Shown here one piece after another: positions 59,432-59,451 of a stretch of DNA of 64,000 bases. Positions within the stretch are counted from its first letter, which is position 1; every line of letters begins with the position of its first letter. The translations under genes were made by a program, and so were the position numbers. The notes under the pieces were generated by a model. That model searched no databases. It saw only the letters and a list, made by a program, of their open reading frames with translations, and was not told the origin of the DNA. This stretch comes from Escherichia phage vB_Eco-B1.1: sequence record ON871820. The stretch is one strand, 5' to 3'.

Positions 59432-59435
59432 AATT

Positions 59436-59451
59436 TGTGACAACTGTCACA
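59436..59451. promoter_or_regulatory. CRP-consensus-like palindrome TGTGA-N6-TCACA
   Basis: aaatttGTGAcaactgTCACAtta matches the E. coli CRP consensus half-sites exactly with 6-nt spacer. Confidence 0.35.

Follow-up and report, generated by a model that had tools for sequence, protein, structure and literature searches.

Small structured RNAs are an established feature of the T-even tRNA region: the species 1 and species 2 RNAs of T4 (rnaC and rnaD) are co-oriented with the tRNAs and presumably released by tRNA-processing enzymes, and to our knowledge neither has an assigned function after 50 years. In rRNA and tRNA operons, processing stems use a long terminal helix to join the ends of an embedded RNA, with flanking tRNAs setting those ends. 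At the DNA level, Escherichia coli CRP sites such as those of lac and galP1, and the 22-bp ICAP consensus AAATGTGATCTAGATCACATTT, share a 10-bp core, TGTGA-N6-TCACA, between A/T-rich flanks. Here we consider a palindrome, TGTGAcaactgTCACA, which lies at 59436-59451 between the tRNA-Asn and tRNA-His genes in a 64,000-nucleotide (nt) stretch of Escherichia phage vB_Eco-B1.1 (ON871820; the window), together with the ~95-nt structured RNA that adjoins it, the tRNA-His leader RNA. We favor, at a probability of roughly 60%, the view that the palindrome, if it acts at all, is an RNA-level hairpin in a polycistronic tRNA precursor whose CRP likeness is a by-product. The palindrome itself is of low interest; the leader RNA, unannotated and new among the stable RNAs of the T-even tRNA region, is moderately interesting.

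The locus matches each of these systems in part. The leader RNA is of the same general kind as rnaC and rnaD but shares neither sequence nor covariance-model similarity with them; orthologues of rnaD and rnaC are present separately in the window, 500-800 bp farther downstream, T4 lacks the leader RNA, and the leader RNA is fused to tRNA-His and extends to the Vequintavirinae. It has the terminal helix and flanking tRNAs of an operon processing stem, and is a candidate stalk, but, unusually for a stalk, this helix is able to extend into the downstream tRNA and invade its first 5 nt. The palindrome has a core and A/T-rich flanks identical to those of E. coli CRP sites but, unlike them, has no partner promoter at -41.5, -61.5, or -71.5; it lies in a tRNA operon, in a lytic phage whose DNA is expected to contain glucosylated hydroxymethylcytosine, is not conserved with the downstream genes, and exists in variants that break its core or spacing. 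The elements on which the argument turns are these:

59451..59545, + strand: conserved, unannotated structured RNA of ~95 nt (tRNA-His leader RNA), identified by fold z-score, RNAalifold, and covariance model R1
59451-59464 with 59532-59545, + strand: helix P1 of the consensus structure
59468-59470 with 59508-59510, + strand: helix P2; in the window sequence, 59466-59471 with 59507-59512
59478-59480 with 59498-59500, + strand: helix P2b of the consensus structure
59516-59519 with 59527-59530, + strand: helix P3, loop UCUUGAU
59432..59435, + strand: A/U linker AAUU, single-stranded between the tRNA-Asn CCA and the hairpin (from sequence and fold)
59436..59451, + strand: palindrome TGTGACAACTGTCACA; as DNA a perfect CRP core, as RNA a 6-bp hairpin
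59436..59442, + strand: 5' arm TGTGACA, lineage-specific, in alignments confined to the RB18/AR1-type clade
59445..59451, + strand: 3' arm TGTCACA, base or extension of P1, complementary to AUGUGGC (-2 to +5 of tRNA-His)
59357..59431, + strand: tRNA-Asn (GTT), upstream neighbor of the spacer, with an encoded CCA at its end (ARAGORN; Rfam tRNA, 74.1 bits)
59546..59621, + strand: tRNA-His (GTG; ARAGORN), whose first 5 nt, GUGGC, are a potential partner of the palindrome's 3' arm

The window's array comprises 11 tRNAs on the + strand (ARAGORN); spacers among its co-oriented members measure 1-10 nt, and the gap between tRNA-Asn and tRNA-His measures 114 nt. The spacer folds at -32.7 kcal/mol (z = -4.28), and none of 200 shuffles was as stable. 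Folded alone, it forms the palindrome hairpin followed by a 13-bp P1 (59452-59464 with 59532-59544) that encloses a long arm, P2/P2b, and the small hairpin P3. For comparison we collected distinct versions from Karamvirus (KaAlpha and EnC07), a Klebsiella T4-like phage (Roth04), Gelderlandvirus (STP4-a and CF-SP2), Roskildevirus (IT22 and FBB1), Winklervirus (CBH8), LF82-9 (filed under Mosigvirus), metagenomes (here and below, L numbers are handles for individual loci), and Escherichia phage W70. RNAalifold on 12 distinct sequences returned 25 pairs, recovering P1, P2, P2b, and P3. In this alignment 96.7% of cells are paired, as against 37-52% in slid controls; eight pairs have changed on both sides (one to three in the controls), and the observed covariation score was reached by 0 of 500 shuffles. 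These ~95 nt of the spacer are a real structured RNA with covariation support for P1, P2b, and P3. The covariance model built from the alignment, R1, scores 133.5 bits at the spacer, and the next-best hit in the window reaches 11.7 bits (E 8.5); close variants score 104-135 bits, the IT22 copy 68.8, the CBH8 copy 53.4, and a truncated FBB1 copy 22.2. The central domain comes in two alternative types, GGGGUUGAACUGAUCACUCUUCUCUU and GGCAGAAGUCAUGAACCUGCU, which differ in sequence yet form the same helix, strong evidence for RNA structure over coding.

The coding alternative is that the minus strand encodes a 22-residue protein (59520-59452, MSSHEIKRRVISSTPIIASSRY), with the palindrome, just past the stop codon, serving as a terminator or regulatory element. 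Such an open reading frame (ORF) does exist and, in our own reading of the aligned sequences, is open in KaAlpha, Roth04, W70, and STP4-a. We nonetheless find this explanation scarcely credible. No Shine-Dalgarno sequence precedes the ATG, the match-level promoter on that strand lies downstream of the ATG, and the frame is antisense to a tRNA operon, with a length (16-23 residues) and C terminus that vary. Substitutions compensate for one another within the RNA helices, P3 pairs on either side of the ATG among them, and in the type B central domain the helix is kept although the peptide is entirely different. Nor does a U-run follow the hairpin on either strand: a terminator scan reported no intrinsic terminator here, and UUAAUAUCU is what follows the hairpin.

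Several features of the loops deserve mention in their own right. The apical loop of the leader RNA (59487-59492) is the self-complementary UGAUCA and contains a GATC Dam site; the alternative central domain (STP4-a, CF-SP2, L015, and L016) holds UCAUGA, also self-complementary; and the P3 loop (59520-59526) reads UCAUGAU or UCUUGAU. A kissing interaction between the apical and P3 loops, considered by eye, would require different registers in types A and B; such kissing, or a dimerization, is conceivable, and we do not claim it. In P1, the A at 59532 (GAAG in place of GGAG), which turns the top pair U59464.G into U-A, is found in the window alone among 13 haplotypes, a sample of the records that differ around the palindrome (see below) and of metagenomes.

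The spacer matches at least 355 public phage records by blastn; distant matches, in Enterobacter, Klebsiella, and Salmonella phages, align only from ~59444-59455 onward and lack the 5' half of the palindrome. Six named Tevenvirinae genera and a Vequintavirinae phage carry the leader RNA, which always lies within a tRNA array and is usually fused to tRNA-His. Its flanks are Asn/His in the window, Gln/His in Karamvirus, the Klebsiella phages, and Winklervirus, and Gly/Gln in W70; lying between co-oriented tRNAs, it could be released by tRNA-processing enzymes. The copy in W70 (Vequintavirinae, rV5-like; L006 795-893) is 87% identical over 76 nt and scores 103.8 bits with R1, and the copy in phage A7_1 is identical to it. 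Similarity of this order implies horizontal transfer of the leader RNA between unrelated phages, Tevenvirinae and Vequintavirinae, and its modular arrival in a Vequintavirinae array suggests that the leader RNA works on its own and is not merely a spacer. Other copies delimit what is constant: that of Erwinia phage IT22 (L032 307-435) has a longer, different inner domain, and that of Erwinia phage FBB1 (L040 358-410) has lost the inner domain and kept the P1 base, CACAUCAAU/AUUGAUGUG, fused to tRNA-His. The constant core is therefore P1, the P3 loop, and the junction with tRNA-His.

It is at this junction that the palindrome meets the leader RNA. Consensus P1 begins at 59451, the last A of TCACA. 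Immediately 5' of P1, (U)UGUCACAU is present in the RB18-type clade, KaAlpha, L010, CF-SP2, STP4-a, IT22, and FBB1; in KaAlpha, L010, CF-SP2, IT22, and FBB1, which include members of Karamvirus, Gelderlandvirus, and Roskildevirus, this 3' arm, TTGTCACAT, i.e., (T)TGTCACAT, stands without a complementary 5' arm. In Roth04, EnC07, L015, L016, and CBH8, the CCA end of tRNA-Gln abuts P1 directly, and the motif is likewise missing from W70. GUCACAU is matched by a complementary AUGUGGC at positions -2 to +5 of tRNA-His; a fold that includes the tRNA-His 5' end has as its minimum free energy (MFE) structure a continuous 19-bp P1 at -37.7 kcal/mol, from which the small hairpin is gone (this value and the -32.7 kcal/mol of the spacer alone are not like for like, the latter sequence being 7 nt shorter). 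Across 14 sequences the extended P1 has 95.1% of its cells paired and eight pairs with two-sided changes, as against one to three in slid controls. At the leader position that faces G4 of tRNA-His, the window has a U.G pair, KarlGJung and L14 have C-G, and CF-SP2, with A4 in its tRNA, has U-A; members of the clade in which tRNA-His is deleted retain ...CUGUG after P1. TCACA would thus be present because it pairs with UGUG. These alignments point to the 3' half-site as an old, conserved part of the leader RNA and to the 5' arm as a younger addition. The 5' arm, UGUGAC, resembles the 5' end of tRNA-His, UGUGGC, with five of six positions identical.

The earlier note on this sequence had called the palindrome a perfect CRP-consensus site, and as a description of the sequence this was right, coordinates included. 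Positions 59432-59454 read aatt TGTGA caactg TCACA tta, with both half-sites, the 6-bp spacer, and A/T-rich flanks between tRNA-Asn and tRNA-His. This is the sole TGTGA-N6-TCACA match in the window; dinucleotide-preserving shuffles contain a mean of 0.05, with at least one match in 5 of 100. An exact core is rare, yet about 1 in 20 windows of 64 kb would contain one by chance. Relative to the CRP consensus, the 22-mer ATTTGTGACAACTGTCACATTA matches at 10 of 10 core positions and 13 of 22 overall. The site is also a perfect 7+7 inverted repeat, TGTGACA-AC-TGTCACA, and such repeats are plentiful: with spacers of 0-6 nt there are 79 perfect 7-bp inverted repeats in the window (47 +/- 11 in shuffles), and with a spacer of 2 there are 9 (5.8 +/- 2.2). 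Palindromicity itself is not unusual here; only the identity with the CRP core is rare. As RNA, UGUGAC and GUCACA (59436-59441 with 59446-59451) are predicted to form a hairpin of -7.2 kcal/mol with an AACU loop. A fixed arm, GUCACA, plus a perfect stem and a 4-nt loop necessarily gives TGTGA-N6-TCACA, so that a perfect consensus can arise without CRP.

How the palindrome varies bears on both views. Over the 45 nt from 59422 to 59466, 177 of 197 records are identical, and the 13 haplotypes were sampled from the remainder and from metagenomes. The center occurs as AACT, AATT, or AGTT on different haplotype backgrounds (among them L028, L030, L036, L037, and L038), and the 5' flank as AAATTTG or AAACTTG. 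AACT and AGTT are reverse complements of each other, and with AATT the palindrome becomes perfect; these alleles look like the outcome of recurrent, palindrome-templated (template-switch) mutation. Quasi-palindrome template-switch hotspots were first modeled in T4 rII, and the likeness lies in a center found as AACT, as its reverse complement, and as the perfect AATT on different backgrounds; the comparison, drawn from the pattern only, would explain how the site mutates, not what it does. One haplotype, that of KarlGJung (a BASEL-collection phage) and L14, reads TGCCACA: CCACA replaces TCACA, which is thereby destroyed, the top A-U pair of the hairpin is lost, and the U.G pair with G4 of tRNA-His becomes C-G. 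In Salmonella phage STP4-a (L005 525-595), GTGACA-gattat-TGTCAC has the same stem around a 6-nt loop, with a GTGA...TCACA spacing of 10, which is incompatible with CRP geometry and fine for a hairpin. The STP4-a GTGACA arm came with a ~60-nt insertion absent from its relative CF-SP2; the insertion has a hairpin of its own, GAUAAGGGACAGGAA...UUCCUGCUUAUC, and the tRNA-His 3' of the leader RNA has also been lost in this phage.

The earlier note had further proposed that the site could tie downstream tRNA or small-RNA expression to host cyclic AMP status. As an operator through which host cyclic AMP-CRP would activate or repress transcription of the downstream RNA, tRNA-His, and tRNA-Arg in response to the carbon status of the cell, the site would have in its favor the perfect 10-bp core with its 6-bp spacer and A/T-rich flanks, against an expectation of 0.05 per window, the retention of this geometry in 12 of the 13 clade haplotypes, the identity of 177 of 197 records noted above, and a weak -10-like hexamer, GATTAT, at 59470-59475. 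CRP is centered near -41.5 at class II promoters and near -61.5, -71.5, etc., at class I promoters. GATTAT would put the CRP center near -38.5, ~3 bp off the class II position; it lies inside P2 and is absent from relatives, and a promoter scan of 59432-59545 found no sigma-70-like promoter on the + strand. A minus-strand promoter match, TTGTCA-18-TAGGAT, overlaps the site; such matches occur at chance frequency (5 found, 7.0 +/- 3.0 expected). T4 late (TATAAATA) and middle (MotA box, TGCTT) promoters in the spacer were considered and rejected on reading the sequence. The downstream unit persists, and is presumably expressed, in genera that have no site (Roth04, EnC07, L015, L016, CBH8, and W70) or only its 3' half (KaAlpha, L010, CF-SP2, IT22, and FBB1), so that the conservation across relatives which the note had named as a check extends to the geometry within the clade and not to the genera beyond it; where the palindrome has changed, STP4-a has the 10-bp spacing and KarlGJung and L14 have CCACA. 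The window is not enriched for near-consensus sites: allowing one mismatch in the core adds none (1 found, 2.43 expected).

DNA modification would present a further obstacle. RB18, 98.4% identical over the 126-base spacer query, encodes the dCTPase gp56, the dCMP hydroxymethylase gp42, the alpha-glucosyltransferase a-gt, and ggt, the T2/T6-type beta-glucosyl-HMC-alpha-glucosyltransferase (HMC, hydroxymethylcytosine); from its phage group, the DNA of the window phage, in which those genes would lie outside the window, is expected to carry glucosylated HMC. Glucosyl-HMC at the cytosines opposite G5 and G7, major-groove contacts of CRP, should hinder binding, to judge from CRP-DNA structures. On unmodified DNA in vitro CRP would probably bind the site, which alone would not show function. 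Our literature search found no link between CRP and T-even tRNA expression. Taken with the variants that break core or spacing, these points make a functional operator very unlikely. Of what the note had proposed, the small RNA downstream survives, as a structured RNA 3' of the palindrome, without its CRP dependence; and the alternative that the note had also raised, a structural palindrome acting as an RNA hairpin or processing signal, fits much better, given a conserved 3' arm at the base of a covariation-supported helix and a predicted hairpin of -7.2 kcal/mol.

We posit that the tRNA array and the spacer would be transcribed as one precursor, as the 1-10-nt spacers of co-oriented tRNAs and the analogy with T4 suggest. 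RNase P cleavage at tRNA-His would generate the 3' end of the leader RNA, with P1 clamping both of its ends together. In many genera, GUCACA could continue P1 by pairing with AUGUGGC at -2 to +5 of tRNA-His. In the RB18/AR1-type clade, the upstream UGUGAC, a mimic of the tRNA-His 5' end, would capture GUCACA once it is transcribed, forming a 6-bp tetraloop hairpin that sits between the tRNA-Asn CCA and P1 and can stack on P1. The hairpin would probably (i) confine the single-stranded RNA available for the cut behind tRNA-Asn to AAUU, where RNase E could plausibly enter, and (ii) compete with leader/tRNA-His pairing and so reduce invasion of the tRNA-His acceptor stem by the leader. We infer these roles in folding and processing, as we do the lack of a CRP function.

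Several observations weigh against this RNA-level view. Transcription through the spacer is itself judged from the co-oriented, tightly packed tRNAs. Positions 59446-59450, which would pair with 59546-59550, show one-sided changes only, with no compensatory pairs among 14 sequences, and Roth04-type phages are mismatched in the stretch of P1 that overlaps the palindrome. Retention of the CRP geometry in 12 of the 13 clade haplotypes is what a CRP model would predict as well. In the folding model TGCCACA destabilizes the hairpin, and the balance moves strongly in favor of leader/tRNA pairing. The predicted benefit for tRNA-His folding is modest: in a nearest-neighbor model that ignores tRNA tertiary structure, the enforced cloverleaf lies 2.6 kcal/mol above the free MFE structure if the 5' arm is present, and 4.7 kcal/mol above it if A6 takes the place of the arm or the arm is removed (other replacements were also made; one, ACACUG, was left out as a folding control on account of artefactual new pairings). 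The hairpin is clearly dispensable, and may be neutral, since most genera do without the 5' arm and one natural variant has a weaker stem.

In a stricter form of this last point, the 3' arm is leader RNA and the 5' arm arose by drift or template switching, with no role in DNA or RNA. Perfect 7-bp inverted repeats are common in the window (the 79 against 47 +/- 11 given above), the 5' arm is missing from most genera, the palindrome is among the more variable parts of the spacer in the clade (59434, 59443, 59444, and 59447 vary), its AACT/AATT/AGTT centers resemble quasi-palindrome template switching, and the predicted effect on tRNA-His folding is only ~2 kcal/mol. The pattern of variation runs the other way: neither arm changes in 12 of 13 haplotypes, whereas the loop does, as expected of a maintained stem. 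Moreover, a second lineage, STP4-a, carries 6 nt complementary to the same arm and placed 6 nt upstream of it, which we estimate would occur by chance in ~0.5% of cases per lineage in a 20-nt search space. A neutral accident is thus a possibility to be taken seriously, and one that we consider improbable on balance.

A different RNA role would have P1 serve as a processing stalk and would place the palindrome within a ribonuclease signal, with RNase III cutting P1, or RNase E cutting at AAUUU beside the hairpin, to excise the inner RNA and separate tRNA-Asn from tRNA-His. RNase III processes the T4 tRNA precursor, and the RNase E motif RAUUW was defined on T4 gene 32 mRNA. P1 is a near-perfect duplex of 13-14 bp, extendable to 19 bp, continued by P2, and kept by compensatory changes; the RNA is always flanked by tRNAs, so that RNase P would make its 3' end; and AAUUU (59432-59436), 5' of the stem-loop, fits RAUUW. 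That motif, however, is AACUU in 4 of the 13 haplotypes, cleavage of the extended helix by RNase III would damage tRNA-His, and most carriers of P1 have no palindrome. We regard this proposal as doubtful. Similarly speculative is a larger claim for the leader RNA: that it is a new family controlling the maturation of tRNA-His, which has no encoded G-1, by pairing of the P1 base to -2..+5, with the clade's palindrome as a competing switch hairpin; or that it is excised as a trans-acting small RNA or decoy that has spread horizontally between Tevenvirinae and Vequintavirinae.

With regard to tRNA-His itself (59545-59621), the phage gene has U at -1 (59545), C73, and an encoded CCA, so that G-1 is not genome-encoded; bacterial histidyl-tRNA synthetase normally relies on G-1 of tRNA-His. 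The AU|GUGGCC junction recurs in the Karamvirus, Roskildevirus, and Winklervirus copies.

The leader RNA has no counterpart in the collections that we searched. Rfam 15 gave no match in the spacer at E up to 10, or in five divergent variants at E up to 1. T4 rnaC and rnaD gave no meaningful alignment to the spacer RNA, and R1 found no match in the T4 tRNA region; by these comparisons this tRNA region encodes, besides rnaC and rnaD, a third and different RNA in the spacer. Neither blastn against 5,426 E. coli genomes nor a pattern scan of GTDB genomes returned a match, and no host origin or homolog was therefore detected. Pattern scans of IMG/VR yielded few loci, of which L012, L013, and L014 are chance matches in coding DNA, as is L020 from a metagenome scan; that scan otherwise added only close variants (L016, L022, and L027). 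The leader RNA is unannotated in the records that we inspected, except for a coding sequence in MLF4, a + strand ORF that runs into the unannotated tRNA-His and is an annotation artefact. Our literature searches, which did not reach into the individual motifs of a catalog of ~10,000 candidate viral RNAs (PMC10690425), found no description of the leader RNA, and they turned up neither RNA-seq nor Northern results for these phages.

The surroundings are those of a familiar phage type. A 1.2-kb query from the tRNA array (58600-59800, including the start of the ORF 3' of tRNA-Arg) matches Tequatrovirus phages of the RB18, AR1, wV7, and HP3 type at 98-99% identity. The tRNA at 59185-59259, with anticodon CAT, is tRNA-Met according to ARAGORN and tRNA-Ile (CAU, presumed lysidine-modified) in the RB18 record. 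Downstream of tRNA-Arg and of a 116-residue ORF (59720-60070) lie the homologs of the T4 stable RNAs, followed by a terminator-like hairpin at 60382-60405; Rfam holds no family for rnaD or rnaC:

60070-60186, + strand: homolog of T4 rnaD, 88% identity (blastn against the T4 annotation)
60193-60331, + strand: homolog of T4 rnaC, 98.6% identity (blastn against the T4 annotation)

Several other inter-tRNA spacers of 65-150 nt occur in the arrays of Karamvirus, Klebsiella phages, and Gelderlandvirus (L003, L004, L007, and L029); in CF-SP2 and STP4-a, for instance, ~100 nt separate tRNA-Gln from the leader RNA. Such spacers may hold further unannotated RNAs or decayed tRNAs.

A true CRP site would mean that a lytic T-even phage reads the carbon status of its host; the evidence makes this unlikely, and the claim is not one to carry forward. 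The case also offers a caution for motif scans, in that a hairpin built on GUCAC-type arms will resemble the CRP consensus. The leader RNA, for its part, is a third stable-RNA candidate in the classic T-even tRNA region and provides a concrete, testable case of a leader able to invade the acceptor stem of the tRNA that follows it.

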